Shown in pieces: positions 17,855 to 35,317 of a stretch of DNA of 64,000 nt (position 1 is the first letter of the stretch; each line of letters starts with the position of its first letter). This DNA is from an uncultured delta proteobacterium. GTDB taxonomy: Bacteria; Desulfobacterota; Desulfobaccia; Desulfobaccales; 0-14-0-80-60-11. The stretch lies in the NCBI GenBank assembly GCA_963812015.1, contig CAWETI010000002.1:608001-672000 (forward strand), written 5' to 3'. The notes beneath the pieces are model-generated. The model was not told where the DNA came from. It did no database searches and saw nothing but the letters and a program-made list of their open reading frames with translations. The position numbers and the translations under genes were made by a program.

Positions 17855-18651
17855 GCAGTTGCCTCAGGCCCGGAACGACCGACCACCAGAACATTCCAGG
17901 TGTCCTCGGACGGGCTTCGGGAAAGGTCCGGGAAAGCGGAGACGATCAGTGGCTCCAGGGCGTTCAGACTGAGAAAGAGAAACAATTCCTGGGGAAAGAA
18001 ATAGCGGACGTGGTGGCTTTCCTGGGTCGCACGGACCAGGCGGTCGCCCGCAAGCTGCCAGACGCGGTAATTGACTTCGCAAACTTGCCTGAAGGTGTCC
18101 AGAGAGGCAGAAGTGGCCCGGAGGATTTGACCTTCGGTGGTGGCAATGACCTTGAGGCGGTCGCCGGGACGCAGGGCCAAGACCGCCGGGCCGTACCAGA
18201 CATCGGCCACGAACAGCCCGCCGGGGCACAGGTGGCGGCGTACTCCGGCCAAAGCCGCAAGCACCTCTTCGTTGGACAGCTGGTAACTCAACACGGCAAA
18301 CATCATTAATACAGCATCAAATTTGCGGCCCAAAGCAAATGTGCGGACATCTCCCTGATGGAAAGCAGGGAGATGACCACTTGGTCCTTTGGGGAAGAAC
18401 TCGGCCTTTTGCCGGGCTCCGGCCAGCATTTCCAGGGAGCGGTCCACCCCGGTGACCCGGTAGCCCCGGCGGGCCAGCGGGAAAGCGTGGTTGCCGGTGC
18501 CGCAGCCCAGGTCCAGGATGCTGCGAACCGACCCATTACCGTATCGGCGAAAGACTTCCTCCAGGAGGTCGCACTCAGCCTCATAATCCTTGTCTCTATA
18601 AAACTGGTCATAAAGTTCGGCGTAATGGCCTTGGAAGACGCGCTCCGTCAT
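17851..18651 (-). CDS. Class I SAM-dependent methyltransferase (sugar-modifying type)
   Basis: YAELYDQFYRDKDYEAEC, ILDLGCGTGNH, HLCPGGLFVADVWYGPAV. Confidence 0.88.
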   Translation of the reverse strand: MTERVFQGHYAELYDQFYRDKDYEAECDLLEEVFRRYGNGSVRSILDLGCGTGNHAFPLARRGYRVTGVDRSLEMLAGARQKAEFFPKGPSGHLPAFHQGDVRTFALGRKFDAVLMMFAVLSYQLSNEEVLAALAGVRRHLCPGGLFVADVWYGPAVLALRPGDRLKVIATTEGQILRATSASLDTFRQVCEVNYRVWQLAGDRLVRATQESHHVRYFFPQELFLFLSLNALEPLIVSAFPDLSRSPSEDTWNVLVVGRSGPEATA

Positions 18652-19781
18652 GATAGAGCCCGCCTCACCGCCTGGCAGACCTGTTCAAGCTGGTCCTTGG
18701 TCAGGGTAAGGCCAGAGGGGAGGTAGAGCCCCTGGCGCGATAGACGTTCAGCTACCGGGTAGCGCTCGCCTTTAAACCAGCCGCGCTCCAGAAAAACCGG
18801 TTGTTCGTGCATCCCCAGGAAGAAGGGACGGGTCTCCACCCCCGATGCCTTTAGGCGCTGGGCCAGGTCGAGAGCGGTAAGGCCGGTGGCCTCATCCAGA
18901 ACCACGCCGTACATCCAGTAAACCTGCCGGGCCCAGGACTCTTCCACGGGTAACTGTAAGGCAGGCAGATCCCGCAGATTTTCCGTATAGGCCTGCCCCA
19001 TCCAGCGTTTATGGGAGATAATTTCGGCCAAACGCTCCAGTTGAGCCAGGCCGATGGCGGCCTGGAGGTTGGTCAGACGAAAATTGTGGCCCATTTCGGT
19101 GTGCAAGAAGCGCTGCTCCGGACGAAAACAGAGATTGCGCAAACTACGGGCCTTGGCTGCCAGATCAGGGTCGCGGGTCAGGAGCATCCCCCCCTCGCCC
19201 ATGGTGATTAGCTTGTTGGCGTAGAAGCTGAAGACGCTCAGATCCCCTAATCCTCCGCAACGGCGCCAGGTAGGCTGGTGATCATGGCGGCCAGCAAGAT
19301 ATTCGGCGCCGTGCACTTCGGCTGCGTCCTCAATGACCATGAGGTTATACCGGTGGGCCAGGTCCCTCACGGCATCCATATCCACGGGATGGCCGTAGAT
19401 GTGCACTGGCATGAGGGCCCTGGTTCTATGGGTTATTCTGGCTTCGATTTGATGCACATCCATGCACCAGGTGCGAGGGTCGGCATCCACCAGCACCGGC
19501 ATGCCGCCATTATAGACCACCGCCAGGGCGCAGGAGATAATGGTAAAGGTGGGGATGATCACTTCGTCGCCCGGCTTGAGACTGAGGCAGGCCACGGCTA
19601 CCTGGAGGGCGGTGGTGCCGTTGCTAAGAGCGATACCGTATTTCATGCCGCAGTAGGCGGCCCATTTTTCTTCGAATTCTTGGATGAAGCGCCCCGCGGA
19701 AGAAATCCATCCGGTGCGGAGGCATTCTGTGACATATTGCAGTTCACGGTTACCCAGGAGAGGCTCATTTACTGGGATCAT
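18648..19781 (-). CDS. DegT/DnrJ/EryC1/StrS aminotransferase (perosamine synthase-like)
   Basis: MIPVNEP, GWISSAG, SNGTTAL, PVHIYGHP, IEDAAEVHG, FSFYANKLITMGEGG, GLYLPSG. Confidence 0.92.
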   Translation of the reverse strand: MIPVNEPLLGNRELQYVTECLRTGWISSAGRFIQEFEEKWAAYCGMKYGIALSNGTTALQVAVACLSLKPGDEVIIPTFTIISCALAVVYNGGMPVLVDADPRTWCMDVHQIEARITHRTRALMPVHIYGHPVDMDAVRDLAHRYNLMVIEDAAEVHGAEYLAGRHDHQPTWRRCGGLGDLSVFSFYANKLITMGEGGMLLTRDPDLAAKARSLRNLCFRPEQRFLHTEMGHNFRLTNLQAAIGLAQLERLAEIISHKRWMGQAYTENLRDLPALQLPVEESWARQVYWMYGVVLDEATGLTALDLAQRLKASGVETRPFFLGMHEQPVFLERGWFKGERYPVAERLSRQGLYLPSGLTLTKDQLEQVCQAVRRALS

Positions 19782-20208
19782 TTGCCTGCTCACTTTCTTC
19801 GAATCGCGCTTTGTCATCATACCCGGCATAGGGCCCTTGCTTGATTTCGATCATAGCCGTATCTTCCAGCATCTCAAAAGAGTGGCCACCGCCGCAGAGC
19901 AGGATGACGTCCCCGGTTGTCAGGATGTAAGAGTCGATGAATTGTTTTTCTGAAGAATAGAGATTCACTTTTGTGCGACCGTGACGAATAAGTAAGACTT
20001 CTTGCGTATAAAGGACTTGCCGGGATACCAGATTATGGACATGGGGTGCAATCTTTGTTCCTTTGGGGTGACGCATGAATCCAACTTGTTGCGAAAAATT
20101 GATAGGGGTAAAAAAGTGAACCCCGGGTTCATCATATTTGGCCCGGATGATCAGAGCAATTGGCTCCAAGCCGTGGATGATAGTTTCCATCAAATGATCG
20201 CCACTCAT
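19765..20208 (-). CDS. Cupin-fold protein of nucleotide-sugar loci
   Basis: GVHFFTP, IAPHVH, TQEVL, GDVILL..GGHSF, EIKQGPY. Confidence 0.7.
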   Translation of the reverse strand: MSGDHLMETIIHGLEPIALIIRAKYDEPGVHFFTPINFSQQVGFMRHPKGTKIAPHVHNLVSRQVLYTQEVLLIRHGRTKVNLYSSEKQFIDSYILTTGDVILLCGGGHSFEMLEDTAMIEIKQGPYAGYDDKARFEESEQANDPSK

Positions 20209-20259
20209 AAAATCTCCGATTAAATTTTGTTCCTTATAGGCAATTTTCCATCCATTTAT

Positions 20260-21370
20260 TACTCAGAGCATATAACTGATTAACTTTTTATGCTGCATAT
20301 TGGACATGTTTCCCTTGGAAAAAGTTGGCGACTATGTCCGGTTTACATTGGCGACTCCGTAGGTAGCTCCTGACCTTCCCCATCAACTCCGTTTGATTAT
20401 TAGGCCGTTGACGCCCCAGGGCATTGGTTTTGACATCATGATTGAGCAATTCGTCCGGGTTGATCTCCGGACTATAGCTAGGTAGAAAAACTAACCGACG
20501 GCGCTCCTCATTTTCTTTGACCCAGTTTTTCACCTTGAGGGAGCGGTGGACCGGGTGACGGTCGATGATGAGATATACCCGGCGATCACTCTGACGGAGC
20601 AAGCGCCGGAGAAACTCTAAGAAAACTGGGGCAGTAAAACGCTCTTTGCAAACTATGAAGTTTAAGCGCCCCTGATTGGTAATGGCAGAAATCATGTTGC
20701 AGCCGAAGCGCTGACCCGTGGCCAAGATCACGGGCGTCTGTCCCTTGAGGCCATAAGAGCGCCCCACGGCATGGTCTGACCGCAGCCCCATTTCATCGCC
20801 CCAGTATATTTGGGTCTTCTCTCTCTGTGCCTGGCGGCGAATACTGGGATACTCTTTCTCAAGCCATTGCCGGACCTGCTCCGGATTTTGTTCCCAGGCC
20901 CGCCGCGCCGGTTTTTGCGGGGTGAAGCCCCAGCGTTTGAGATAACGGCCTACGGTCCAGACTGACACCTGTAAGCCAAACCGGCGTTTAATGAGGAGCG
21001 CTACCGCTTCCCGGGTCCAGAGGTAAAAAGGCAATTTGAGTTGTTCCGCATGATGATCAATGACCGTCTTGGCAATTTGTGCAGCCTGCCAAGGCAGGAG
21101 CTTTCCTCCTTTCGGACGGCCTTTCCGTTTCGATTTAAGCGCTCCTTGGCCCTGAAGGCCATACCCTTTCACCCATCCACAGATGATTTGCGGTGCAACT
21201 CCACAGAGCCTGGCAACTTCTCTCTGTTTTTTACCGTCCAATACCGCTTTAACGGCTAATTGGCGTAGATGTTCTTGCGCAGATGATGGAATGGAGCGAG
21301 CATCGACTTTTTGCATGCAATATCTATAGCATAAGCCCCTAAATAGTTAATCTATTTATTGCGTTGAGTA
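20260..21370 (-). mobile_element. IS630-family insertion sequence with a 342-aa transposase (20288-21316)
   Basis: HTH plus DDE motifs (WGDEMG, IIDRHPVH, YSPEINPDE). Imperfect IRs TACTCAgaGCAtatAacTGATTAACT / TACTCAacGCAataAatAGATTAACT with TA ends. Confidence 0.93.
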
Positions 21371-21469
21371 ATAAATACTATCTTTCGAGCTGTTTTTCCC
21401 AATGCTTAACTGCAAATTCCAGCATGATATACATACCTAAGGTTATTGTTGAGAGATTGGCAATCCAAA

Positions 21470-21630
21470 AAATTCCAGATAGCTCTTGACAACGGGGATA
21501 TAGGAAGAGTCTTCCTTGAGTCAGCGGTCCCGGGCTGCCGCGGCGATTTGCCGGCGAGCTGCGTCACGTGATGGATCAAGCCAGTAACTTAGTTTTTCTC
21601 GAAGTTCCCTTGCGAAGCGCCGGAAAAACG
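21470..21630 (-). pseudogene. Remnant of the C-terminus of a CgeB-like glycosyltransferase
   Basis: Hand translation ...ELREKLSYWLDPSRDAARRQIAAAARDR*LKEDSSY resembles the ends of 4887-5915 and 6657-7862. Confidence 0.45.
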
Positions 21631-21919
21631 TCCACAACATTCCCCTTAGGTATTACCCAGATTTCGATGATCTTGCTGCTTATTTACAATTATTAATCAT
21701 AATTATACTTTATTTGTAAAATATTTTCGTCCAAAACTGATTTGGAGAGTCGATTATCTTTAATGGAATGCACATGTGACAAAGGGCCATAATATGCAAC
21801 TCGATATATCCGGAGAAAAACACAGGAAGAGTGCATTTGAAGCCTCTTTAAATATTTTGCCTAAAGTTATGCAGCCGATCTTTTACCCAACCTATGTGTC
21901 CGGTAAGTTGAGAAAATAC

Positions 21920-24199
21920 CTATTTCGTCTCATCCGGATAATATGTGGAATGAGTTTTATTATTGTAGTAATAATATCCTGCGTAGCCATCAGCGGTGTT
22001 GATGCCATTTAATACTGCACCCATTATTGGGGCATTAATCTGACTGAGAAGATGGTGGGACTGGATCACGGCTCTCTTAGCGGTGCAATTATTCTTAGTT
22101 ACCAGTATAACTCCATCGACCAGGACAGATATTATTCGGGCATCGGCAAATGCCAGAATAGGGGGCGTATCGATAATAATGTGGTTAAATTGCTTTCGGA
22201 GTTGCTTGATAAAATCCTTGAAGACCTCGGAATTCAATAGATTAACGGGGTTGGGGGGGTGGGTTCCAGCGCTTATGATCGTCAGATTGGGAATAGAGGT
22301 TAAGCGCAGGACCTCTTCAAGAGTGGCGTTGCCGGTTAGATAATTGGTTAGGCCCGGCTTTAAATCAAGTTGGAAAATTTGGTGCACCCTGGGTTTCCTC
22401 GTGTCACAATCGATCAGGACCACCTGATGTCCAGTCATCGCAAAGGACAGGGCCAGATTAGAGGCGACCATGGTCTTCCCTTCTGCAGGATTGGGGCTGG
22501 AAATCATGATGGCAGATGGGGGCCTTCCTGACATAGAGAACATGATAGAAGTATGCGTGTGGCGAAGGGCTTCGGCGATCCGATGCCTGGGATGTTTATA
22601 GACAACTAAGTCTAAATCTACCACATCCATGGGGCTCTGGTTACCGCGCTGCAAGCGGGGAAAATAACGAAATATTGCCGAAGAATCGGGCTTTCCCTGA
22701 TAGCTGACCATTATTCTGTGGCTGCCGTCTATCTTGGGCAAATTCCCCAGTGAAAATAAATTACAGGCTCGTTCCAAGTCATCGGGGGATTTGATGGAGT
22801 CATCTAAATGTTCTCTCAGCAGGGCCAAGCCAACGCCTAACATCAAACCAAGAAACGCACCCATCATGAGGTCGCGCCTCGTCTTGGGCGAAATCGGTAC
22901 ATCCGGAAGTGGCGCCGAATCGATGACCGAAATGTTGGAAGGCACCATGCTGCTGGCTATGTTGGTCTCTTTGACTCTGGACAACAGCGCCAGGTAGAAT
23001 TGCTCATTAGTCTGCGAATTCCGTTTCAGCATCTGATATTCAGTAAGATTATTCTGCAACTTGGACATCTGTTCTTTTTGGGCCGAGAAACTGTCACTCA
23101 AGAGGTTTTTGGTCCGCTTGGCCGCTTCATAATCAGCCTTTACACTCTCCGTCAGGCGCTGAATCTCAGATTGCAAGCGGCTCTGCAATTCGGCCAGGTG
23201 AGCCTTTGCTGCCTGCATTTCCGGATGGCCGCTAAGAAAAACTTTCTGCATAGATGAAACTTTGGCCTGTTGGGCCACCAACTGCAGACGCAGCGAGGAA
23301 ACTAAAGCATTATTGACAATCAGCGGGGCATTGGGGCCCTTATCCTTAATCTCCTGATATTGCGCCTCCTTCGCCATTTCCTCGGCTTGAGCTTTGGTGA
23401 GCAGAGCGTTCAGATCGATGAATTTATGGACAATTACATTGTCTTTGTCCTCTGAAGTATAAATATCGGTTTGTTGGCCAAATTTATAGAGCTCCTTCTG
23501 ACCCGCGTACACTTTGGCCGCCATTTCCTGGAGTTGTTTATCCAGCCACTTTCTCACCAGGGCAAAAGACTCACCGCGCCGGTCGATGGACAGGTACATA
23601 TATTCATTGGCGATGGCATTGACCACCCTTTGCGTTAGAAACTTGTCCGGAGATTGAAATGAGACTTCCAATAGATAAGAATTGCGTATTGGGGTGACTT
23701 TTAATTTGCTTAGAAAGGAGTTCACCATGCCCTCTTCAATGTCCGTTTCGCTTATGTCATGGTTTTTCACCCTAGCGGGTTTGAAATCCGGATGCTCCTG
23801 CAGCTTCAAAGCCTGGATGACGCGAAGGGCCAGGGAGCGGCTCTGCAGGATCTTGTACTGAGTCATCTGGAACTTCTCTAAGGAATCGTAATCCAGATAT
23901 CTGGACACTGGATCCACGCTCACCTGGGAGCCGGGGTTATCTTGGGTGATCTGCAACATCGCGGAGGTACTGAATATTGGCGTCCGCGTGTAAGTATAAA
24001 ACCCAGTAAAGAAGACTATACTGAGAAAGGTGATAATAATCAACCACTTGTGCTTCAACAGAACGTAGACATAGTCCCGGGCTGTTAATCTACCATAGGT
24101 ATTAAAATTATCATAGCCTAGCGATAAAGGCGTAGATAGAGATGATTGCGGAATAGGGGATTGTCCTACTGCTACAAGAGGCTGATCATGATTTGACAT
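21920..24199 (-). CDS. wzc: Polysaccharide co-polymerase / tyrosine autokinase (Wzc/GumC)
   Basis: Two TM segments flanking a coiled-coil; Walker A SSPNPAEGKT, LIDCDTRKP, IIIDTPP; C-terminal Tyr cluster YAGYYYY...YY. Confidence 0.95.
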   Translation of the reverse strand: MSNHDQPLVAVGQSPIPQSSLSTPLSLGYDNFNTYGRLTARDYVYVLLKHKWLIIITFLSIVFFTGFYTYTRTPIFSTSAMLQITQDNPGSQVSVDPVSRYLDYDSLEKFQMTQYKILQSRSLALRVIQALKLQEHPDFKPARVKNHDISETDIEEGMVNSFLSKLKVTPIRNSYLLEVSFQSPDKFLTQRVVNAIANEYMYLSIDRRGESFALVRKWLDKQLQEMAAKVYAGQKELYKFGQQTDIYTSEDKDNVIVHKFIDLNALLTKAQAEEMAKEAQYQEIKDKGPNAPLIVNNALVSSLRLQLVAQQAKVSSMQKVFLSGHPEMQAAKAHLAELQSRLQSEIQRLTESVKADYEAAKRTKNLLSDSFSAQKEQMSKLQNNLTEYQMLKRNSQTNEQFYLALLSRVKETNIASSMVPSNISVIDSAPLPDVPISPKTRRDLMMGAFLGLMLGVGLALLREHLDDSIKSPDDLERACNLFSLGNLPKIDGSHRIMVSYQGKPDSSAIFRYFPRLQRGNQSPMDVVDLDLVVYKHPRHRIAEALRHTHTSIMFSMSGRPPSAIMISSPNPAEGKTMVASNLALSFAMTGHQVVLIDCDTRKPRVHQIFQLDLKPGLTNYLTGNATLEEVLRLTSIPNLTIISAGTHPPNPVNLLNSEVFKDFIKQLRKQFNHIIIDTPPILAFADARIISVLVDGVILVTKNNCTAKRAVIQSHHLLSQINAPIMGAVLNGINTADGYAGYYYYNNKTHSTYYPDETK

Positions 24200-24284
24200 C
24201 AGTTATACCGCCTAGTTACTTTATTATTGTGTAAAAAAAATGCTATAGTGTATCCGCCCCTGGGAATGGGGATATCAAGATCCT

Positions 24285-24409
24285 GATTTTTACCTCGCCC
24301 ACCAGCGGCATGCCGATCTCTCCCTGCCCGTTGATCCAAAGCGTCGGTCCAGGGTTTTCTGGCCGAGGATCTCGGCTACAAGTTGGTCTCACGGCCCCAC
24401 CTGAAAGTC
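24285..24409 (-). pseudogene. Degenerate fragment of a second wza-like gene
   Basis: DFQVGP*DQLVAEILGQKTLDRR-(fs)-INGQGEIGMPLVGEVKI aligns with DYTVGPEDLLEIGVYGQKELQRFVRVNGSGDITMPLIGLVQV of the adjacent Wza. Confidence 0.65.
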
Positions 24410-24473
24410 TTTATCGTCATCTAGGCTCAGATACGGGTGGCTTGAAAGGGTTTGCTATATCCTGACAGATTGT

Positions 24474-25523
24474 TCAAATTGCGCTTCCCGCGGAATAGCT
24501 GATTCCGCCGCCCACCAACTGTTTCACATCCAACAAGAGCCTTCTTAAGATGCTTTCTGGAACATAGACCACGTCATTCTCTTTGAGGGGGATATCCAGC
24601 TCTTTCTTTGCTAAGATGGCATACAGGTCAAAAGGAATGGTCGTCGGGTTACCTTGCTCATCGATTCGTAGGATGGACGATATCTGGGGCTTGGCCAGCC
24701 CTGCTACAGGGCTACCCGCCACGGCGACGGCCTGGGAGACCGTCAATTTACCTTTGACTGGAACGGTACCCGGCTTATTCACCGAGCCCAGCACATATGC
24801 CAGGCCGCCGATCGGCACATTGATAACATCTCCAGCCTGGATGGGCACATTAAGCCTCCCGTCCTGGGAAAGACGCCGCAGATCAAGGACGATGGTCTCG
24901 GAGTTAAGGGCAAAGGATTGAGGAACGTCAGTTCCAGGCTTTAATTTTCCGCCCTCCCGCCCGGTACGCTGGGAGCGGATGATATGCACATAATCGCCGG
25001 CTTTTTCATCCAAGCCTCCGGCCAAGGCCAGCATCTCCAGGAGCGTGCGCGGCCCGATCATCTCATAGCTGCCCGGTTTTTTTACGGCACCGGTCACTGC
25101 CACTTGCTGGTGGCGATATTCTTTGACGAAGACGCTGACCTGGGGGTTCCTTAAATAATTAGTACCGTATAATTCCTGGAGGTGGCTTTCCACCTGCTGG
25201 GGTGTCAGCCCGGCTACCTGGACGAGCCCAATAAGGGGCATGGTAATATCCCCCGAGCCATTCACTCGGACGAAGCGCTGGAGCTCCTTCTGCCCATAAA
25301 CGCCGATTTCCAGGAGATCCTCAGGGCCCACCGTGTAGTCACGCGGAGTTCTCAGGTTGGCGGCAGCCCCCTGAGCTAAAATTTGCTGGTTGAGATCATC
25401 TTTTTTGTCTTTGGTCTGAAGTTGCGCTGATGCTTTTTGCGGGGTGATGGTTCCGGAAGAACTACAGCCGGCCAACCAGAAAAGGGCCACTAAAGGCATG
25501 AGCAGATATCGACAACGATCCAT
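24474..25523 (-). CDS. wza: Polysaccharide export lipoprotein (Wza/OPX, SLBB repeats)
   Basis: Lipobox LAGC; DYTVGPEDLL, GDITMPLIG, VTGAVKKPG, LGSVNKPG, NDVVYVP. Confidence 0.93.
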   Translation of the reverse strand: MDRCRYLLMPLVALFWLAGCSSSGTITPQKASAQLQTKDKKDDLNQQILAQGAAANLRTPRDYTVGPEDLLEIGVYGQKELQRFVRVNGSGDITMPLIGLVQVAGLTPQQVESHLQELYGTNYLRNPQVSVFVKEYRHQQVAVTGAVKKPGSYEMIGPRTLLEMLALAGGLDEKAGDYVHIIRSQRTGREGGKLKPGTDVPQSFALNSETIVLDLRRLSQDGRLNVPIQAGDVINVPIGGLAYVLGSVNKPGTVPVKGKLTVSQAVAVAGSPVAGLAKPQISSILRIDEQGNPTTIPFDLYAILAKKELDIPLKENDVVYVPESILRRLLLDVKQLVGGGISYSAGSAI

Positions 25524-25679
25524 GATAAATTCCCTATAATTTAAGTTTTTTTAACAGAGATTATGCGGCCGCCGTGGTTGCTTCTGTCTAAAAGAGCTAT
25601 CTGGATTATCTTATTCTGAAGCTTAAATCCGGAAACACTGGCGGCTGGCTACCGCCATAAAGGCCCTGAAAACGCTTAG

Positions 25680-26190
25680 TGGTATGGTTCCAAAGCCTCC
25701 TCGGTCAAATCCACCGCCACCGCCCCGCAAGTCCACTGCCACCACGAGGCGACGCTGGCCGTCTTTTTTCCGCAGGATGAAGCCTGTGGCCCCGGCCAGG
25801 GGGCCCCCGAGGATGGTCACCCGCCTCCCCTTCACCAACTGGGACCACAAGGATCAAGCGTCAGGTTGCTGGTCACCATCCTTTGGAGTGAGTATACCGT
25901 CTCCGCCGGTACCGGGGTGCACTGTCGCTTAAGTCCCAAAATGCGATCACGCCAGTATTTTTAAGAATATCGTAATAGACCGGGGTGCTGAGGTCGGCAT
26001 GGACGAAGAGATAGCCCGGGAAGAGGGGGACTTCCAGGAGGCGGACCCGGTCCTGGCGGTGACTGCGCGCGGTGATGCGGGGGAGAAAGACCTCCAGACC
26101 CTGATTTTGCAGGTGCCTCTCCACCTTAGTTTCCTGGCGGCTGTAAGTGTGGATCACAATACCAGGCAAGGTCTCCGTGGGTAACTGCAC
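25680..26190 (-). pseudogene. Frameshifted UpxY/RfaH-type NusG-family antiterminator
   Basis: AWY-(fs)-VIHTYSRQETKV...FLP...PLFPGYLFV (NGN domain). The KOW motif GRRVTILGGPLAGATG is in a different frame (ORF 25623-25850). Confidence 0.8.
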
Positions 26191-26548
26191 TGCTCTCAAT
26201 AGGCACCTTGGACACTCGCTTCGATTTGTATTCAGCCATTTTCCAAACAAATTGCCGTCCCGTAAATTACATAAGTAGTTTACCAATTACCTCAATAATT
26301 TAATATGTTATGGCTCAAACCATAACGTTCGGCCCCGATGACCTCCCCGAAACCCCTATCGGAAAAGTCGCCCTCCCCGGTTTTGCCCCCCCAACCCTGG
26401 AGCGACTATGGCTTCACCGGCTAACCCCCTGCTCTACCGGGAGGTGATGCGCCGCTCTTTCAATAATCACCACTGATGCCCCCGGCAGGACAATGAGCCT
26501 CAGAAATCTTGGCCCAGCAGCTCAGAATGACAAGAAAGAATTGAGGAC

Positions 26549-27736
26549 TTAAGTATTCCGCAAATATTTATTGTCCGGCGGCCGCCCATAATTGAGAGAC
26601 AAATCCCCTACCCGGGCCATGGCCTCATTCTCGCCGGCAAAGCGGGCTGGGAACTCCACCGACAGCCGCCGGGAAATCTCCCCCAGGGAGCTTTGGCCGT
26701 CCATCAACTCCAGGATGAACCGGTCGATGCGGCCATCCTCTGTCAGAACCGGCACATGGGTAGAGGCCCGTTGCTTCAGGCTAGCTGGAGATACGGGGGC
26801 GCCTAAAAAAGTGGATTGCCGGAACTCGGCCTTTAGCCGCCCCGGCTGGCTCTCGTCCAGGATGCGGGTATCCCAGCGCCAGAGATAATCATCTCCCACC
26901 AGGTTGGCGGCCAGGTCTACCGATACCACATCCCCCGCTTCCAAGTTCATGGGTTCCGGCCAGGGGAAAAAATATTTGGCATAAACCCCGGGGCTTTCGC
27001 CGGGGCGGTTGGAAAAGGATACGCCCGGAGCCAGAAGGGCGTCGAACCAGAGAACGATGCCGTGGGCCGTGCCGGCCCGGTCCGTGGTCCACGCTAATTC
27101 GCACCGGGCATCGGGCTCCGCCACCGTATAAAAATTTAAGGTCCACCAGCATTGGGCCGGGGCCAACATATCCTCCGGCGTTACCCGGGCCGAGTAACTT
27201 TGATTAATGGCCAGTGGCCACGCCGCCCGCAGATCCAGCCCGTAAACATCTTCCTTCCAGGCGGAGGTATGTTTCTCATACACCTCCGGCAATGCCACCA
27301 CCGCGGCCCAGAGGGTATCCTCTTGGGGAATCAAACGCCCTCCGGGAGCCAGAAAACGCTGCCGGGCATCCACAATAGTCGGGATTATTTGTTGAAAAAA
27401 AGGCAGCGACCCGTGCAGGTCGGAAACGATGACGTCCACCGGTTCCGGCAGGGTAATCCGGGTGGAAACGTCCTGGATGAAATGAATCCGCTCCGCGTAG
27501 CCGTTGGCGGCCGCCAGGTCCCGGGCCAGATCGAGGAGATCGCTGGGGTCGATGGCATAAACCCGGGCCGCGCCGCACTGGCAGGCCAACAGGGCGAACA
27601 TTCCGATGCCGGTGCCGATGTCCAGCACCACCGCCCCGGGGCTGACGGCTGAGCGCAGCGCCTCCCGGTAACCGGCCGTCCGCTTGGCATCGAGGATCAT
27701 CTGGCCGTAGCCATCGAGGGAATAAGTATGGGTCAT
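26549..27736 (-). CDS. PRMT-like (protein-arginine methyltransferase fold) SAM methyltransferase with a C-terminal RRE/PqqD-like segment
   Basis: MILDAKRTAGY, VVLDIGTGIG, GAARVYAID, VDVIVSD, RFLAPGGRLIP, HGIVLWFD; tail FILELMDGQSSLGEISRRLSVEF. ATGA overlap with the kinase gene. Confidence 0.8.
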   Translation of the reverse strand: MTHTYSLDGYGQMILDAKRTAGYREALRSAVSPGAVVLDIGTGIGMFALLACQCGAARVYAIDPSDLLDLARDLAAANGYAERIHFIQDVSTRITLPEPVDVIVSDLHGSLPFFQQIIPTIVDARQRFLAPGGRLIPQEDTLWAAVVALPEVYEKHTSAWKEDVYGLDLRAAWPLAINQSYSARVTPEDMLAPAQCWWTLNFYTVAEPDARCELAWTTDRAGTAHGIVLWFDALLAPGVSFSNRPGESPGVYAKYFFPWPEPMNLEAGDVVSVDLAANLVGDDYLWRWDTRILDESQPGRLKAEFRQSTFLGAPVSPASLKQRASTHVPVLTEDGRIDRFILELMDGQSSLGEISRRLSVEFPARFAGENEAMARVGDLSLNYGRPPDNKYLRNT

Positions 27737-28773
27737 ATTGACAGGCTTGATTTTTCCGCCCGATAGTCGCCGCCGGCTTGGAGATGGGAAAAATCCTCCA
27801 GGATGCTCTCGCAGAGTTGGTTCAGGTAGGCGGGTCCGGCCCGGGGAATCAGGCGGCGCACCGGCACCCGCTCCAGCAGGCGGCCCAGGACCTCGAACTC
27901 ACGGGCCCGCAGCTCCTTATCCAAAAACTTCGACCCATAGGTGTTGGCTATCAGCAGCAGCAGCCTTTCCTTCCCCGGGACCTCTTCCACCCGGGGACCG
28001 GCATCCTCCTGCCGCGCCCCCAGGATATAAATGGCCCCTAAGGGGAGAGGCCTAGACTGAAAGCAGTAGCCGGGGGCGGTAAGGTTGAGCCACCGCTTGT
28101 CCCATTCGGGATCCAAGGTATTATCCGAGATGACCGGAGGCAGGGCGGTGGGGGAGCCATAGAGATACACCACCGATTGGGGCCAGAGACAGACATTGGG
28201 GTCCCCCGGGAGCACCCAAAAGGTATCATCCTCCTCCTTAAGAACCGTGAGGTCATCGGTGAGCACCGGGTAGCCCAGGCGGGCAAAGGCCGCGGCGGTG
28301 GTGGATTTGCCGGCGCCCGGAAACCCCAGCACCGTTAGGGCGTGTCCTCCCGCGGCCACGGCGCTGCCGTGCAGACAGGGCGTCCCCCGCCAACGCAGGA
28401 GAATCCCCAGGACCGGGCCCAACAGGTAGGTGGAGAGATATTCCTGGGTCGCGCCTTCGGGCCCCGAGACCCAAAGACGCGACCCCGCAGAGTCCATGAC
28501 GAACTGGCAGCCGTCGCTGTATCTCAGCCGGAAGTATCGGCCTCCGGCCACCTGCCAGGCTCTATAGACGGGTTCGCCGCCCTGGTCATCCTCGAAGCCG
28601 GTTTGCCACAATTCCTGGGGCATCTCCAGGAACCGGCGCCACCATTCCGCCGTGCCCTCATGGCATATTTCCACATCTACCGCCGCTGGCTCCGCCTGGG
28701 CCACTAGACCGGGAATAGGCCGGTCGGACCTTAGCCGCAAGCCGAAGATGTTATAAAACAAAGACGCAACCAT
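27733..28773 (-). CDS. HPr-kinase-like P-loop kinase of the type found in lasso clusters
   Basis: LHGSAV, Walker A GFPGAGKSTT, VLTDD, PLPLGAIYIL; first gene downstream of the precursor. Confidence 0.85.
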   Translation of the reverse strand: MVASLFYNIFGLRLRSDRPIPGLVAQAEPAAVDVEICHEGTAEWWRRFLEMPQELWQTGFEDDQGGEPVYRAWQVAGGRYFRLRYSDGCQFVMDSAGSRLWVSGPEGATQEYLSTYLLGPVLGILLRWRGTPCLHGSAVAAGGHALTVLGFPGAGKSTTAAAFARLGYPVLTDDLTVLKEEDDTFWVLPGDPNVCLWPQSVVYLYGSPTALPPVISDNTLDPEWDKRWLNLTAPGYCFQSRPLPLGAIYILGARQEDAGPRVEEVPGKERLLLLIANTYGSKFLDKELRAREFEVLGRLLERVPVRRLIPRAGPAYLNQLCESILEDFSHLQAGGDYRAEKSSLSI

Positions 28774-28802: not shown

Positions 28803-28949
28803 CTAAGCTGCAGTTTTATTACGACCAGTCCAACCGCCAGTGTCAGTATTACCATTTCTACCTGTAGCCATGGTAATCTGCTTGACATTGCCGTAATCCA
28901 TCACCTGGGGGGGGTGATAAGCCAGCCGTTCTTTTTTCGTGGATTTCAT
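28803..28949 (-). CDS. Lasso peptide precursor (48 aa): MKSTKKERLAYHPPQVMDYGNVKQITM|ATGRNGNTDTGGWTGRNKTAA
   Basis: AGGAGG RBS 6 nt before the ATG; leader motif YxxPxV..G....T(-2); core starts at Ala with Asp at position 9; lies among B1/B2/C genes. Confidence 0.93.
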   Translation of the reverse strand: MKSTKKERLAYHPPQVMDYGNVKQITMATGRNGNTDTGGWTGRNKTAA

Positions 28950-29157: not shown

Positions 29158-31002
29158 TTAGGAGCGAATCACTGATTGCAGAAATTCCTCCAGACCCTTG
29201 ATGCAAGTCATATCGCGGTAGAGCCTGCCCTTAGTTGCTGCAATTTTCTGGCTTATTTGCTCCCGCCAGCTCTCGTCCAGGGCAAGACGCGCGGCCACCG
29301 CCACGTATTCTTCCAAGCTGGTGACGATGGTCTCCGTGACGCCCATCATGGTCAAAAAAGCCATACTGTGCCTTCCCCGCATAAGATTCCCGGGCAGCGT
29401 AACCACGGGCAGGTCACAGGCAAGGGCTTCTAAGGTGGTGTTGCCTCCGGACCATCCAATGCTGTCCAGGAAGATGTCGGACAGGCAATTCAGGGCGTGA
29501 TATTGCGTTGAATCCAGCCGCGGTAAAAGGGTAACATAATCTTCGGAATTTAAGCCATAATTCCCGAATGCCTGATGCAGACGCCGCTGAAATTGGTTAT
29601 TTACGAAAACCGAGTCTCCTTGAATAAAGGCGAATTGACAGTTGCCTACTGCTTTGGCGAGTTGCGGGAAGACGGCATCGTATTGCGGCAGATACTTGAA
29701 TAGGGACTGTGGGCAAAAAAATAAAATACCATTCGACTTAAGGTCGAAACTGGCCCGGCTCAGCCCAGTCTCCGGGAATTCCCGGGGGCTGTAAAATGTG
29801 GAGAGATTGGGCAATTTCACCAGTTTTTCGGTGTAATGCGCTTCAGCTCCCGGAGGCTCCATCAGCTCGCTACTCAGATAGTAGTCCATGGTAGGTAAGC
29901 CTGAGGTAACCGGGTGGCCCCAGGACACGCACTGGATAGGCGCAAGCTTTAATGAAGCCAGCCTGAGAGTCAGGTAATCCATTCCCACTTCAGGATAGAT
30001 CAATATGTGCAGCCGGTCCCCGCGGATCATCCGTGCCAGTTTTGGTAATGAAAAAACGTCTTCCACCAGGCGGACAAAACTCTGCCTCGCCTGCCCGGTT
30101 TCATTGTCCTTTCTAGTTCCTGTGTGGTAGCCGTATAGCTGAAACCGCCGTTTATCTAAATTCTCCCCCCAACCCTTTGCGAGAATCTTCCAAACGGAGT
30201 GTTCCCATAAGAAACCTGAGACAATCCCGACTCGGCAAGGTTCGACCGGATTGGAGGGCGGCATCGAAGGGGCTTGGGCCCATTTCGGGTATCTGGCTGC
30301 CTGAATGCGACAAACCAATTTACCATAGAGACTCTGAAGATCGCGGTCATTGAGTCCCTGATATGCCAAGTAAAAAGGAAAGCAACTCCCCACAGCCTGG
30401 GCCGCCTCCTTAATCTCGGCCGAACTATCTAGCCTGATGGTTTGGCACAGATGCTCCAGTTCCTTTTGATAGCATCTCCGGGTTTGCGCAATCTCGCTCG
30501 CCTGACCGTAAAGAATAGGAGTTTGAGCTATACAAAGATTGAGCCGGGCTCTCACCGAGTCAGGTTTTATAGCCAGGGCCTTTTTTAAACAGTCGAGTGC
30601 CTCTTGCTGTTCTCCTAGGTTAGAGAGAATTGCCCCCAATCTATTGTAATGCTTGGCATTATGAGGATCAAGTTCTATCGCCTTTCTATAGCAAGCGATG
30701 GATAAGCTGGCTAACTTTGGATCTTCGGTTGCCAAAAGAGCCTCCCCTAGTTTACAGTGGGCAGAAACCTTCTTCGGTTTAATTTTAATAGCTTGGCTAT
30801 AACAACGCATAGCCTCAGATAATTTTGCCAGCTCCATTAAAACATCGCCCAGACGAACAAAGGTATCATAGGTTGGTTCTATTTCAATTACTTCGCGGTA
30901 AGTTTTCTCAGCTTCTCGAAAGTTTCCGGATCGGCAGTCTTGCAGAGCTTTTTTTAATCTTTCTCTTATATCAGGTGATAGTTTCCTAATTTCGTGGGAC
31001 AT
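29158..31002 (-). CDS. TPR + GT41-family (OGT/SPINDLY/HMW1C-like) protein glycosyltransferase
   Basis: N-terminal TPRs; RVGIVS..LWEHSV, YPEVGMD, LAPIQCVSWGHPVTSGLPTMDYYLS, QSLFK, DIFLDSIGWSGGNTTLEAL. Confidence 0.88.
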   Translation of the reverse strand: MSHEIRKLSPDIRERLKKALQDCRSGNFREAEKTYREVIEIEPTYDTFVRLGDVLMELAKLSEAMRCYSQAIKIKPKKVSAHCKLGEALLATEDPKLASLSIACYRKAIELDPHNAKHYNRLGAILSNLGEQQEALDCLKKALAIKPDSVRARLNLCIAQTPILYGQASEIAQTRRCYQKELEHLCQTIRLDSSAEIKEAAQAVGSCFPFYLAYQGLNDRDLQSLYGKLVCRIQAARYPKWAQAPSMPPSNPVEPCRVGIVSGFLWEHSVWKILAKGWGENLDKRRFQLYGYHTGTRKDNETGQARQSFVRLVEDVFSLPKLARMIRGDRLHILIYPEVGMDYLTLRLASLKLAPIQCVSWGHPVTSGLPTMDYYLSSELMEPPGAEAHYTEKLVKLPNLSTFYSPREFPETGLSRASFDLKSNGILFFCPQSLFKYLPQYDAVFPQLAKAVGNCQFAFIQGDSVFVNNQFQRRLHQAFGNYGLNSEDYVTLLPRLDSTQYHALNCLSDIFLDSIGWSGGNTTLEALACDLPVVTLPGNLMRGRHSMAFLTMMGVTETIVTSLEEYVAVAARLALDESWREQISQKIAATKGRLYRDMTCIKGLEEFLQSVIRS

Positions 31003-31116: not shown

Positions 31117-32949
31117 TCAACACTCAAATTTTGCCAGCCAGTAATTGAGGCTTAAGGGGCGCAGGTTTATCCACAGCCGACCCGGGTCGGTCTCGGTCGT
31201 CGCCGGGGGAACCGCGGCGCGCCGGACATAGGCGGCCAGCCCGTCGCATGGCTCAAAGTTATCCAGCCACCGGGAATCGGGGCGGCGGACCAGGGCCAGT
31301 TCGGGATGGTCGACCATGGGCGTTTTGGGACGGCGGCGGATAAGATCCGGCAGACGCTCCTTGGCCAGTTCCCGGAGCATGATCTTATCCACGCACCAGG
31401 GCAGTGGCGGCAGGCTCAGGGCGTAGGTGAGAAGCCGCACATCCAGCAGGGGATGGCGAAACTCCAGCGGCCCCCCCATAACCCCGGCGTCATACTCCAT
31501 TTCGAAACACCCTTGCAAAAAAGACCCGGCCAGAAAGGCGCAGGCTTCGGGGCGCACCGGGGGCTGGGGCGCCGACCTTCGCTTGAAAAGTTGCCACCGG
31601 GCAGGCAGGTCCAGCCGGGCGCTCAGGTCCGGGTCAAGCCACTGGGGGAACCCGTCCTCAGGCTGGCTCCGGCTGTTGCGAGTGCGCCAGCGATCCAGGG
31701 CGGTCCTGAAACCAACTTGCGGCATATGGCCGTAAAGGAAGAGACTGCGCCCCATTCCCGTTACCAGTGGGGCCAGATGCAGGCTCCGGGCCAACTTGTA
31801 GATATACGATTTGGAGGGGTAAAGAATCTCGTCGCCGCCATGGCCGGTGAGGACTACCCGGCTGTGGATAGCGGCCAGCTTGATCATGTCCAACCCGGCT
31901 GCTGCTCCACGGGGATCGTGGCAGGGCTCCGGTTCGCTCAGGTCGGCCTGGCGCTCAAACAGAGCATAATCATCCTGGGGCAGAAACTCGATAGGGACTT
32001 GCAAATGCCTGGCCACCGCCCCGGCAAAGAAGCGCTCTTCATCTGGGATCAACCGATCGAACACTGCCGTCTGGCAGTGCAGGTCGAAGCGGGGTGACCG
32101 TTCAATCAGCAGTTCCCGGGCCACAGCCGTCACCAGAGGAGAATCCAGCCCGCCGCTGAGATATACCCCTACCCTGTCGGTGCGTAAGCGGTCCGCAACC
32201 GCCTCCCGCAGCAACTCCTGGAACCGGTCCACATAGTCCCGCTGGCGCCGGTAGTGCACGGGGCCTTCCTGAGGCAGGCGCCAGTAGCGCTGCACCTTTA
32301 CGGCGCCCCCTGCCTCCCAGGTCTGGGAGTGGGCCGCGGGCAGGCGCCGGATGTCGACAAAGCTCGTGGTAGCCGGGTCCTGGTTGAATTCAAAGAGGAG
32401 GAAATCGGCGATGACCAGGTCATTGAGCCGGTCGGAAACGTCCGGGTGCTGCCGGATGCAGTTCAGGGTATTGCTGAAAACCAGGCTACGGCCCGTTTCG
32501 GCATAATAGAAGGGCTTGACACCGAAATGATCCCGGGCGCAGAACAGCCGCCGGTGGCGTCCATCCCAGAGGGCGAAGGCAAAATCTCCGATCAGATGTT
32601 GGAGACAGTCGTCCCCCCAGACCTGGTAGGCATGAAGGATCAATTCGACATCGGGGGAATTTTTGGGAACGGCGCAGCCCCGGGCGGCAAGCTGTTTGAC
32701 GAGATCGGCGCGGCCGTCGATACGGGCGTCCGCGGTGATCCACACCTGGCCGTCCAGGGTCAAGGGCTGACAATCCGGCCGGGTGTCATCCACCGTGCGC
32801 AGCAGGGCATGCCCGAGGCCTACTGTGCCCTGGCTCCAGGTCTCCTGGGCATCGGGGCCGCGGAAGGCCAGGAATTCCGTCAGGCGCCCCAGCAACTCCC
32901 GATCCACCGGTTGCCCGTCCAGATTGATGAGGCCCACGATGCCGCTCAT
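31117..32949 (-). CDS. Lasso peptide cyclase (asparagine synthetase-like, protein C)
   Basis: MSGIVG (Ser replaces the Ntn catalytic Cys), RGPD, GDFAFALWD, ARDHFGVKP, LSGGLDS, TGHGGDE, HPLLDVRL. Confidence 0.93.
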   Translation of the reverse strand: MSGIVGLINLDGQPVDRELLGRLTEFLAFRGPDAQETWSQGTVGLGHALLRTVDDTRPDCQPLTLDGQVWITADARIDGRADLVKQLAARGCAVPKNSPDVELILHAYQVWGDDCLQHLIGDFAFALWDGRHRRLFCARDHFGVKPFYYAETGRSLVFSNTLNCIRQHPDVSDRLNDLVIADFLLFEFNQDPATTSFVDIRRLPAAHSQTWEAGGAVKVQRYWRLPQEGPVHYRRQRDYVDRFQELLREAVADRLRTDRVGVYLSGGLDSPLVTAVARELLIERSPRFDLHCQTAVFDRLIPDEERFFAGAVARHLQVPIEFLPQDDYALFERQADLSEPEPCHDPRGAAAGLDMIKLAAIHSRVVLTGHGGDEILYPSKSYIYKLARSLHLAPLVTGMGRSLFLYGHMPQVGFRTALDRWRTRNSRSQPEDGFPQWLDPDLSARLDLPARWQLFKRRSAPQPPVRPEACAFLAGSFLQGCFEMEYDAGVMGGPLEFRHPLLDVRLLTYALSLPPLPWCVDKIMLRELAKERLPDLIRRRPKTPMVDHPELALVRRPDSRWLDNFEPCDGLAAYVRRAAVPPATTETDPGRLWINLRPLSLNYWLAKFEC

Positions 32950-34538
32950 TTTGTGCCCTTTATCGCCCGGTATTTAGCTTTAAAAGCGAGACGTATGTGA
33001 TACCAGGCCCGCTGAACTGCGTTCCCGATATCCCGAGGGATCATCTTAATGGCGGCCCAGACTTCCTGTCTAACCTCGGCCCCTTGCCGCTTTTTCAAGA
33101 AGAGCCGGGCCAAGCGGCTGCGGACCACACAGCCGTCATCACCGGCAGCGATACCCATACGCAGCGATATTATAGCAGTATCAATCTGTCCTTGTGCAGC
33201 ATAAAGCCTACCTAAAATCGTATGTATCCGGAAATGATCGGGGTCCATGAGGAGGGCGCGGTCATTGTGGGAAAAGATGGGAGCCCCTATGGGCAGATAG
33301 CCCCGCAGGCTCAAGTGCAGCGATCTTTCGTACGCCTCAATAGCCTCAGGACCTCGACCTCGCTTCGACAGAACCTTTCCCAAGGTGCGCCAGGCATCCA
33401 CCAGATGGTCGTCAAGTTCCAAGGACTTGCGCAGCCAGGCCTCTGCCTCCTGCCACCGCGTGAAACGGGTCGCCAGTTGTCCCAGGCCGAAATGGGCGTA
33501 AGCGTCTTCCGGATTCAAAGTTAGGGTGCGCCGGTGCTCCTGCTCGGCCTCTGGGTAGCGCCGGTCCCAGTAATACCAGAACCCGCCGCTGCCATAAGCG
33601 GTGCCGTAAGCAGGGTCAAGTTCCCGAGCCCGCCGGTGGCACTCCCGGGCGTCGGTTGGTCTCCCCATATCGGCGTAAGCGCCTGCCAGGAGGAATTCGA
33701 GGGCAGGATTGTCCGGGAGAAACTCTCTGGCCTGAAGATAGGTTTGCACAGCCTGGGGCAGGTTCCCCCCAGTCTTGGCTCGGGCTCCCTCCCGCAGCAG
33801 GGTCATCCCTCGCAGAAATGGCTCGTGATCTCGAACCCCATCCAGGCGCCGGGCCAATTCATCGCCCAGATATTTCCACTGCAATGGGGTAAAGCCTCCT
33901 TCCACCGAATAGGCGATGGTCACCAGTTCGGCCTGGATGCCCATGTCCTTGAGGCCGGTCGCCAAAGCGTCGGGCCAGCACCAGGGAAGTCCCCGATGTT
34001 GGTCGCTGGAGTGGCAGGCCTTGGGAATCACCATATAATCCACGTCGATATCTAATAGGACCTTTTCGGTTATCAGGGGCAGGCCCTGCAACGTGCACAC
34101 CCGCAAGGGCCTCCCCAAAATTGCGCCGGCAATCAGATCTCTTTCCGCCTTGAGGGGATGCGGCTTGCCGGGATATTTTGCCAAAATTTTTTGCAAACTC
34201 CGTACCAAAGGCTTGCGGCTTCCGGCATCCCCCAAGGTCCGATCAGGGACCACCCAAAAGATTTCTCTGACCATGCCTTCCTTCAAGGCCTGGCAGATAA
34301 AGTTGCCAATATTGAGGGAAGACCGGTCTGCGCACCAGCTCAGGTCATCATGGGCGTCCACGTGGACCAGAATTTTCTCACGGACTCCGGCATCCTTCCA
34401 AACAAAATAGGCCTGGTCATGGTTTTCCATGAGATGGACACGCTTCAGAAAGGGTTCTACCTGGCTTAAGGCTGACTTTTGCATATCTTTACTGGTCTGC
34501 TGCCCCGATAATTGTGGCTGCATAATGACCGGCCCCAA
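32946..34538 (-). CDS. UPF0489 / arginase-like metallohydrolase domain fused to TPRs
   Basis: ENHDQAY..W, HVDAHDD (DxHxD), LDIDVDY (DxDxD), VTIAYSVEGGFTP, then TPR repeats. ATGA overlap with the cyclase gene. Confidence 0.75.
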   Translation of the reverse strand: MGPVIMQPQLSGQQTSKDMQKSALSQVEPFLKRVHLMENHDQAYFVWKDAGVREKILVHVDAHDDLSWCADRSSLNIGNFICQALKEGMVREIFWVVPDRTLGDAGSRKPLVRSLQKILAKYPGKPHPLKAERDLIAGAILGRPLRVCTLQGLPLITEKVLLDIDVDYMVIPKACHSSDQHRGLPWCWPDALATGLKDMGIQAELVTIAYSVEGGFTPLQWKYLGDELARRLDGVRDHEPFLRGMTLLREGARAKTGGNLPQAVQTYLQAREFLPDNPALEFLLAGAYADMGRPTDARECHRRARELDPAYGTAYGSGGFWYYWDRRYPEAEQEHRRTLTLNPEDAYAHFGLGQLATRFTRWQEAEAWLRKSLELDDHLVDAWRTLGKVLSKRGRGPEAIEAYERSLHLSLRGYLPIGAPIFSHNDRALLMDPDHFRIHTILGRLYAAQGQIDTAIISLRMGIAAGDDGCVVRSRLARLFLKKRQGAEVRQEVWAAIKMIPRDIGNAVQRAWYHIRLAFKAKYRAIKGTK

Positions 34539-34584: not shown

Positions 34585-35088
34585 TTAAGGAGCCGCCGGG
34601 GGGATTATTTCCCGAGGGAAAGGGGGAAACCGCCCGGCCACGTTCGCACCGTCATTCAGCGGCTGGCCCTGGAACTCCACCCAGGCGTGGGCTTCCAGGC
34701 GGCTCGGCTCAGGCTTAACGCCGATGCGCAGCTCTCCGGCAAGCCCCTGGCGGCGCAACAGCCACCAGAGGACCAGGGATCGGGGGAGACAGGTGGGCCG
34801 AAAGAGGCCGTAACGGGCTGCAACCTGCACCAGGCGGGCGGTGGCCCGAGCCTGATCCAAGTCCGACTTTAGGGCAGACAGGTGCGGGGCCAGGGCCTCT
34901 CCCTGGTTCAACCTGGCCTGGAGCCGGCAGAGTCCCCAGCAGCGCAGTCCTAAGGCCACCAGGGGGAGCGCCAGGGAAGCCTGGACCAACAACCACCGCT
35001 CGGCCCCGGAAAGCTGCCATGCTTTCTTTAGATTAATTTTCGTGGAGTTCCAGTAATCCACGCTGCACCATCTTGGACACAAAATCAT
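34585..35088 (-). CDS. Lasso peptide leader protease B2 (transglutaminase-like)
   Basis: TCLPRSL, LRIGV, LEAHAWVE (Cys-His-Glu); true start is probably the GTG near 35062. Confidence 0.92.
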   Translation of the reverse strand: MILCPRWCSVDYWNSTKINLKKAWQLSGAERWLLVQASLALPLVALGLRCWGLCRLQARLNQGEALAPHLSALKSDLDQARATARLVQVAARYGLFRPTCLPRSLVLWWLLRRQGLAGELRIGVKPEPSRLEAHAWVEFQGQPLNDGANVAGRFPPFPREIIPPAAP

Positions 35089-35317
35089 CTAGGTCTTGCC
35101 GCAGCAAAGGTGGGTCAACCTCATAGTCTGCCAGCAACTTCTGGTAGGCCGCCTCGATATTCTCGCTGGAGGTCAGAGCCTGGCACATGCGCGTCCCCAC
35201 GCCATCCAGACCGTGGTAGCATTCGGTGTCGAGATTGAGGAGCACAGATTCGTTTTCGAAGGTGCGCATTAAAACATTCACGGGGAAGGTAACCCGCATG
35301 CTCATGGAAAAAGGCAT
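35033..35317 (-). CDS. PqqD-family RiPP recognition element (lasso B1)
   Basis: ESVLLNLDTECYHGLDGVGTRM...LLADYEVD..LRQDLDDFVSKMVQRGLL. Confidence 0.93.
   Translation of the reverse strand: MPFSMSMRVTFPVNVLMRTFENESVLLNLDTECYHGLDGVGTRMCQALTSSENIEAAYQKLLADYEVDPPLLRQDLDDFVSKMVQRGLLELHEN

Follow-up and report, generated by a model that had tools for sequence, protein, structure and literature searches.

A PRMT-fold methyltransferase with a rebuilt acceptor pocket in a kinase-bearing lasso peptide cluster

The PRMT fold is known from the arginine methylases of eukaryotes. We describe here a bacterial enzyme of this fold, encoded by a minus-strand gene in a 64,000-nucleotide stretch of DNA from an uncultured delta proteobacterium (the window), whose relatives are a regular part of kinase-bearing lasso peptide clusters. 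The gene is genuine, and its product is apparently an uncharacterised version of an established fold within an established class of pathway. The pocket that holds arginine in other PRMTs has been rebuilt, and judging from sequence patterns it is close to an even call that the enzyme N-methylates the side-chain amine of Lys18 in a Lys-Thr (K-T) motif of the neighbouring precursor.

The gene, its cluster and its relatives

The cluster reads, in minus-strand order, B1, B2, an arginase-TPR protein, cyclase C, a TPR-GT41 protein, the precursor, an HprK-like kinase and the methyltransferase. Its features, and those of the enzyme, are as follows.

35535 to 36683, plus strand: nucleotidyltransferase (NTP_transf_5; domain match), divergent from B1
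35033 to 35317, minus strand: stand-alone RRE, lasso B1 (PF05402, E 8.9e-13, above cut-off)
34585 to 35088, minus strand: lasso leader peptidase B2 (NF033537, above cut-off)
32946 to 34538, minus strand: peptide-arginase-like domain plus TPR (metal ligands; motifs as given in excerpts of PMC12703449)
31117 to 32949, minus strand: lasso cyclase C, asparagine-synthetase-like (NF033535, E 4.5e-108, 362 bits, below the cut-off of 525)
29158 to 31002, minus strand: TPR plus GT41 (OGT/SPINDLY-like) glycosyltransferase (domain matches)
28803 to 28949, minus strand: lasso precursor, 48 aa, with an AGGAGG site upstream (NF033528, E 1.6e-4, and NF033521, E 0.011, both below cut-off)
27733 to 28773, minus strand: HprK-related lasso kinase with a His-Lys-Asp-Asp motif (TIGR04352, E 3e-8, below cut-off; motif as given in excerpts of PMC9266682)
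26549 to 27736, minus strand: PRMT-fold SAM-dependent methyltransferase, 395 aa (Pfam, PDB, AlphaFold2 and Foldseek matches)
26807 to 27736, minus strand: methyltransferase residues 1-310, a Rossmann domain, a dimerisation-arm segment and a PRMT-type beta-barrel (PDB alignment, model, Foldseek)
27386 to 27427, minus strand: residues 104-117, rebuilt double-Glu loop with D106, H108, Q115 and I117 at PRMT1 E144, M146, E153 and M155 (Hmt1 alignment)
26978 to 26989, minus strand: residues 250-253, THW-loop position, G-V-Y-A (I/V-Y in the type A family; alignment)
26588 to 26740, minus strand: residues 333-383, three-helix PqqD-like tail without the RRE beta wing (models, profile and structure searches)

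A lasso cluster is indicated by B1 (the RRE), the B2 peptidase and the C cyclase, the last under its curated cut-off. The precursor has the marks of its class, a YxxP leader, Thr at -2 and an Asp/Glu at core positions 7-9 (Asp9); its 21-aa core also holds Arg4, Arg16 and Lys18-Thr19. The methyltransferase ATG overlaps the kinase stop codon (ATATGA). All cluster genes except C are single-copy in the genome, and the cluster is patchy because only 6 of 83 genomes of the class match, its own genome counted. A promoter and terminator scan returned terminators at chance level.

The preliminary description, made from the letters alone, had placed the gene in a lasso cluster and assigned its N-terminal ~310 aa to the PRMT layout. 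Both assignments stand: B1, B2, C and a precursor lie alongside, and the motifs it quoted are all in place in the open reading frame, at residues 13, 36, 100, 129, 225 and 340. Pfam PRMT_C matches the protein above cut-off (E 1.4e-9), yeast Hmt1 is the top PDB sequence match (E 1.3e-27, residues 8-276), and the best 60 of 73 PDB sequence matches are PRMTs throughout. An AlphaFold2 model from a 117-sequence input reached pLDDT 94, and among the Foldseek matches listed for it there are only PRMTs (TM 0.64-0.71, 21-25% identity). The Rossmann SAM domain, the beta-barrel and the dimerisation arm are all present, together with SAM-binding motif I, the M-x-x-D-x-x-R helix (M13/D16/R19) and the arm motif W-x-x-x-Y-G-x-D.

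A homologue search scored 7,998 candidates, of which 1,556 passed, at least 120 of them at 50% identity or more, so the family is large. Its members carry the automatic names 'PrmA' or 'protein arginine N-methyltransferase'. The first arises because the SAM motif alone matches: against the L11 methyltransferase PrmA the protein scores 23 bits, compared with an equivalog cut-off of 183 (TIGR00406). PIMT and StspM identities were ruled out on score or fold. We examined the loci of 80 of the 219 relatives found in genome contigs, and 52 are of the window's type (type A); 47 of these 52 have a lasso gene and 46 a kinase.

The lasso cluster lies directly upstream of a minus-strand block at 12456-26286 that encodes Wza, Wzc and Wzx along with glycosyltransferases and a NusG/RfaH-like protein. 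A Wzc gene also occurs close by in 8 of 80 related loci, and the NusG-like frame at 25873-26286, only 137 aa long, appears truncated. Upstream of the cluster, amid transposase pieces, lies a NodU/CmcH-like carbamoyltransferase with TPRs (37842-40064, minus strand), which has two more copies in the genome and occurs in 2 of 80 methyltransferase and 2 of 80 arginase loci. Transposase genes of the DDE_3, integrase-core and IS1380 types surround the region (20288-21316, 8813-9655 and 40368-41312). The TPR-GT41 gene, between C and the precursor, recurs in a few related loci (L200, L212, L233, L158); its product possibly glycosylates the lasso at Ser/Thr or Asn.

The acceptor pocket and the C-terminal tail

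The arginine pocket of PRMT1 consists of the double-E motif SEWMGYCLFYESM (E144, E153) and the THW loop (excerpts of PMC8619983). In the Hmt1 alignment the window stretch SDLHGSLPFFQQI falls on the double-E motif, which puts D106, H108, Q115 and I117 at its key positions, and the loop itself reads SDLHGSLPFFQQ. As the preliminary description had suspected, the canonical loop is altered: D106 and Q115 replace both glutamates. The THW loop is likewise absent, G-V-Y standing in its place, with Tyr at the position of the THW Trp in 102 of 117 close relatives. Across these 117 relatives position 106 is Asp in 109 and Glu in 8, position 108 is Arg in 82 and His in 31, Glu is found at position 115 in only 21, and position 117 is His in 68. 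The type A rows of the alignment agree, with an acid at 106 in 69 of 71, Glu at 115 in 13 and Tyr in place of the THW Trp in 62; the acid at 106 is retained in all three subtypes described below. PRMT position 146, the counterpart of residue 108, lines the substrate channel. From the rebuilt double-Glu and THW positions and the kept SAM motifs it follows that the fold is that of a PRMT but that the guanidinium clamp is gone.

The C-terminal ~70 aa had been described as an RRE-like domain fused to the enzyme, a claim of which the PqqD-like helices stand and the winged helix, or complete RRE, does not. Both the whole-protein model and a model of the tail alone (pLDDT 94 and 91) have two short helices, a coil and three helices, and neither has a beta strand between the barrel and the tail helices, so that the tail fails the strict RRE definition because it has no three-stranded sheet. 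PqqD ranks first at weak scores, by sequence profile (3G2B, E 0.011) and in Foldseek with the tail alone, at E 1.0 and with no match at E 0.001 or better. In a VIA structure search PqqD 3G2B again came first, with Z 6.3 (rmsd 6.2, 66 aligned) and lasso B1 6JX3 reached Z 5.2 (rmsd 3.3, 57 aligned), scores in the range of common helical arrangements. Family tails match TIGR03859 in 37 of 56 cases at E 0.1 or better and PF05402 in 24 of 56 (best E 1.3e-4, weak), and the window's own tail scores below both cut-offs. Compared with the clusters' own B1 profile, the tail profile gives a probability of only 17%.

The tail is carried by 46 of 52 loci of type A and by all 7 of type B, and almost all of these are lasso clusters. 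Among 18 E..E/HW-type loci it is found in 1, and lasso genes likewise in 1; the E..E members that are located in lasso clusters do carry it (L142-L144). Natural members without a tail comprise a supported clade of five (L026, L029-L031, L133) plus L022 and L271. In none of the six frames did a tail remnant follow these genes, and the members of the clade adjoin normal K-T precursors. Searched alone at E 1e-10 or better, the tail matches 811 clusters at 50% identity, many of them fragments. Of its best 150 matches, 39 are complete members of the family and 98 are fragments to which the family profile aligns from the first residues on. In the remaining 13, all short gene calls, the tail comes after family barrel sequence or unrelated N-terminal residues; these 150 include no convincing fusion to another enzyme. 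Apparent stand-alone copies, the 103-aa pieces of L197, L199 and L200, were rejected as start-less remnants overlapping B1. In these three loci a remnant of the methyltransferase's last 85 residues lies between B1 and the arginase, a deletion trace.

We read the tail as a PqqD-related accessory piece and not an essential RRE, B1 being encoded separately; it is possibly a docking piece. The leader may guide the enzyme through the tail, given that the tail is restricted almost wholly to lasso clusters.

Precursor cores and candidate acceptors

Precursors were collected by a leader pattern from the methyltransferase loci and from three other sets: 20 loci and 6 short ones chosen on B1 in the window's own phylum, 60 loci chosen on the kinase in two other phyla, out of 66 matches, and 80 metagenome loci chosen on the arginase. 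Duplicates were removed, spurious matches at L019 and L180 were dropped, and partial methyltransferase genes (L073, L136, L138, L192, L069, L166) were typed by hand. Trees were built with FastTree or quick IQ-TREE without a mixture model; many of their forks are unsupported and no order of events is inferred from them.

Our leading, tentative reading places the methyl group on Lys18, which directly precedes Thr19, the predicted phosphorylation site of the neighbouring kinase. The enzyme would use SAM and would act on the linear precursor, because StspM and the lasso kinases do so (excerpts of PMC9266682 and PMC8498205). Asp106 would hold the amine where Glu144 of a PRMT holds the guanidinium, and the basic residue 108 may read the adjacent phospho-Thr. 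Cores with Met in place of Lys would yield either a sulfonium, with longipeptin A as a lasso precedent for Met S-methylation (excerpts of PMC10664482), or no product. In clusters with an arginase, an Arg-Thr pair would be turned into Orn-Thr, as a substitute for Lys-Thr.

The cores carry most of this argument. Type A clusters without an arginase gave 57 cores from 49 loci, and 43 of the 57 end in [K/M][T/S/C]x0-4 (32 with Lys, 11 with Met), a motif defined after inspecting these same type A cores. Such an end is found in 0 of 30 cores (24 loci) from clusters in which neither methyltransferase nor arginase was seen. When only loci chosen on the kinase or B1 are counted, it is found in 8 of 9 type A cores and again in 0 of the 30 without the enzyme. 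One locus (L171) has a K-T core but no methyltransferase gene in the cluster, the type A enzyme being on another contig, and was counted as type A. Among the 57 type A cores, 14 do not carry the motif, and 5 contain no Lys and no Arg. In arginase clusters with a type A enzyme only 4 of 12 cores have it.

Close to the window the pattern is similar. Four of the six nearest clusters, the window counted, have K-T and a fifth has R-T and an arginase: the core ends are K-T-A-A in the window, K-T-A in L278, K-T-H-A in L275 and K-T in L111 and, with an arginase in the cluster, R-T in L276 and G-T-R-V in L192. The L278 enzyme is 73% identical over 329 aa, and the L278 core has no Arg; L111, of the same genus, has neither Arg in its core nor an arginase. 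L192 has the closest N-terminal half (82% over 147 aa), yet its core has no K-T. In the kinase tree the window's clade includes four loci on three branches without a type A enzyme (L134, L135, L140/L141), whose cores have a Thr near the end preceded by Tyr, Gln or Arg; of their genomes, which may be incomplete, two have no match and two have E..E-type proteins only. Too few pairs were informative when motif was tested against enzyme by independent pairs on the kinase tree (median p 0.5), so common descent with a kinase subfamily may underlie the association; many control loci have distant kinases. Three clusters (L036, L039, L131) have two precursors, one ending in K-T and one in M-T, beside a single methyltransferase. 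Four cyanobacterial loci (L172-L175) have a close kinase, B1, B2 and nucleotidyltransferase; within 16 kb they have no cyclase match and no pattern-found precursor.

It is unlikely that the enzyme instead O-methylates the phosphate added to Thr19 by the kinase, giving a methyl phosphodiester, with the Lys or Met at -1 serving only as an aliphatic recognition element. Such a reaction would account for the interchange of Lys and Met, and it agrees with the frequency of the kinase in type A loci (46 of 52), its translational coupling in the window and the Thr within the last three positions of all six nearest cores. The family pocket also bears on it, having lost one acid and gained Arg108 (53 of 71 type A rows) and His117 (44 of 71), a shift towards a more basic pocket that counts against the lysine reading. 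Arg/His-rich pockets bind phosphate or carboxylate acceptors, and a pocket of this kind, with a geometry that we assume from the CARM1 and PRMT1 structures, would suit an anionic acceptor better than an amine. In the window enzyme, however, both basic residues are weakened or gone because it has His108 and Ile117, and the acid at 106 persists across the three subtypes. In addition, 7 of 57 type A cores have no Ser/Thr in their last five residues, and the phosphate may already be the target of the nucleotidyltransferase, as it is in pseudomycoidin (excerpts of PMC9266682).

Quite unlikely is a route in which the arginase-TPR protein converts Arg4 or Arg16 to ornithine and the methyltransferase then methylates this ornithine, so that the lasso peptide would carry N-methyl-ornithine. 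Peptide arginases have the metal motifs EEH(N/H)EAF, DXHXD and LDIDLDYF (excerpts of PMC12703449), and the arginase-TPR protein has all three, as MENHDQAY, DAHDD and LDIDVDY. Its ligands H40, D61, H63, D65, D163, D165 and D167 are intact and invariant in 84 relatives. OspR (8BRP) is the best PDB match of the arginase domain (E 1.9e-6), NF052474 matches the protein under its cut-off (E 1.8e-12), and the domain alone has no Pfam match at 0.001. Of the 80 arginase-chosen metagenome loci, 53 have B1, 42 have C and 24 have some methyltransferase sequence; in this set (L191-L270) cores are Arg-enriched, often at ring position 4-5. From these sequences arginase-TPR lasso clusters are predicted to make ornithine lasso peptides.

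As to the methyltransferase, Arg is found in 25 of 27 cores of arginase clusters compared with 19 of 56 in type A clusters without an arginase, and Arg108 has given way to another residue in 11 of 14 type A enzymes encoded in arginase loci compared with 7 of 56 others. Column 108 differs most of the whole alignment, and 106, 107 and 117 shift too. N-methyl-ornithine is known from enteropeptins, through a different enzyme class (excerpts of PMC12703449). Nevertheless, independent pairs were uninformative for the shift at 108 (median p 1) and too few for ring Arg against arginase, and Arg108 is kept in 5 of 10 further, loosely matched pairs. All 52 genome loci of type A are without an arginase, the DNA available for 13 precursor-bearing arginase loci revealed no methyltransferase, and the window core retains K-T. 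Ornithine remains a live rival because the window enzyme has His108 and Ile117. The preliminary description had named Lys18 or an ornithine as its fallback acceptor, a guess that is supported.

Another acceptor altogether, be it the C-terminal carboxylate, the Thr hydroxyl, a backbone amide, or a pathway protein or sugar instead of the peptide, is improbable. C-terminal methyl esters of lasso peptides are known from StspM (excerpts of PMC9266682), polysaccharide genes adjoin the cluster, and lasso genes are missing from 5 of 52 type A loci, of which two span 21 kb. Winged-helix tails are also found on bacterial protein lysine methyltransferases, and the corresponding PF21782 matches 10 of 56 family tails (8HKR, Z 4.8). 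Against these acceptors, anywhere from 0 to 4 residues separate K/M-T from the C-terminus, and the pocket type follows the core type across subfamilies.

Very improbable is the reaction first proposed, canonical Arg N-methylation guided by a fused RRE: the fold, the core residues Arg4 and Arg16 (the latter in a G-R context) and tail-bearing relatives with an intact E..E loop beside Arg-rich cores speak for it, but in the window enzyme both Arg-binding loops are rebuilt, with the second Glu and the THW loop missing, the tail has no beta wing, the cluster's own arginase would strip the guanidinium, and Arg methylation is unlikely because 38 of 57 cores beside a type A enzyme, that of L278 among them, have no Arg.

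Two further subtypes bear on how pocket and core are related. In a tree built without the pocket columns, type B enzymes (D-Q-I-G, with Arg-Arg at the THW place; loci L047, L049, L052, L069, L080, L160 and L235) form a supported group, and 7 of 11 type B cores have Cys among the last three residues, mostly as Cys-Leu; by sequence they are candidate Cys S-methyltransferases or C-terminal carboxyl methyltransferases. The near-identical L142-L144 enzymes, encoded at about 11300-13400 (plus strand) of their loci, combine an S-E-T-I-G-N-Y-G-A-E-E loop and S-W with neighbouring Arg-rich cores that end in S-R, and are the strongest candidates for genuine methylation of Arg in a lasso peptide. From subtypes A, B and E..E it follows that pocket and core vary together, in few independent events. 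A possible but doubtful generalisation is that a bacterial PRMT-fold family, equipped with a truncated PqqD tail, was taken up by lasso clusters and had one pocket retuned three times, to Glu-Glu for Arg, to Asp-Gln plus Arg-Arg for C-terminal Cys-Leu and to Asp-x-Arg for K/M-phospho-Thr; in its boldest version phospho-Thr19 would be capped as a methyl phosphodiester, or an arginase-made ornithine methylated, on a phosphorylated and glycosylated lasso.

Comparison with known systems

No description of the family was found in the open literature searched on lasso tailoring, arginine methyltransferases with lasso peptides (one unrelated paper), bacterial PRMTs, RREs, RiPP lysine methyltransferases and arginase with lasso. 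There is no mention of a PRMT-type family in the main text of the RRE-Finder paper (PMC7470986), and no description of a PRMT-fold lasso family was found in the excerpts of PMC9811515 and PMC13622209. The family predicts lasso peptides bearing methyl-Lys, methyl-Orn, S-methyl-Cys, methyl-Arg or methyl-phosphate, none of which was found in the open literature searched. It also ties a large bacterial PRMT-fold branch, usually labelled PrmA, to short, easily made substrates, and because pocket residues change with core sequence, acceptor choice on the PRMT scaffold becomes directly testable.

With the eukaryotic type I PRMTs (Hmt1 1G6Q/9VKF, PRMT1, PRMT2, CARM1) the window enzyme shares the Rossmann domain, arm, barrel and SAM motif I. 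It differs in E144 to D, M146 to H (R in the family), E153 to Q, M155 to I (H in the family) and THW to VY, and in its extra three-helix tail, bacterial host and location in a lasso cluster. The tail has three helices with a D-G turn in common with RRE/PqqD (3G2B) and lasso B1 (6JX3, 5V1U); unlike these it has no beta1-beta3 sheet in either model, and it is absent from some natural members.

Known lasso methyltransferases are, like the window enzyme, SAM-dependent tailoring enzymes: StspM and LasF form a C-terminal ester and are mitomycin O-MT-like, TceM and LihM act in aspartimide formation and belong to PIMT (excerpts of PMC9266682, PMC10664482 and PMC8498205), and LopH, MTHFR-domain-like, is proposed to S-methylate Met in longipeptin A (excerpts of PMC10664482), a side-chain sulfonium precedent. 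By their descriptions in these excerpts they belong to other families, none described as PRMT-fold. In the enteropeptin pathway the KgrD arginase and then an Fe-S methyltransferase convert Arg to ornithine and N-methyl-ornithine, the same sequence of steps as in the ornithine alternative, but with a different arginase family (PF00491), a different methyltransferase and no lasso (excerpts of PMC12703449).

The closest parallel in gene content is with the paeninodin and pseudomycoidin clusters (PadeK, ThcoK, PsmK, PsmN), which likewise have an HprK-like kinase with His-Lys-Asp-Asp, a nucleotidyltransferase and split B1/B2. Their kinases phosphorylate a C-terminal Ser, whereas the candidate site in the window is a Thr at -1 to -5, and the window cluster further encodes a methyltransferase, a peptide arginase and a GT41 enzyme.
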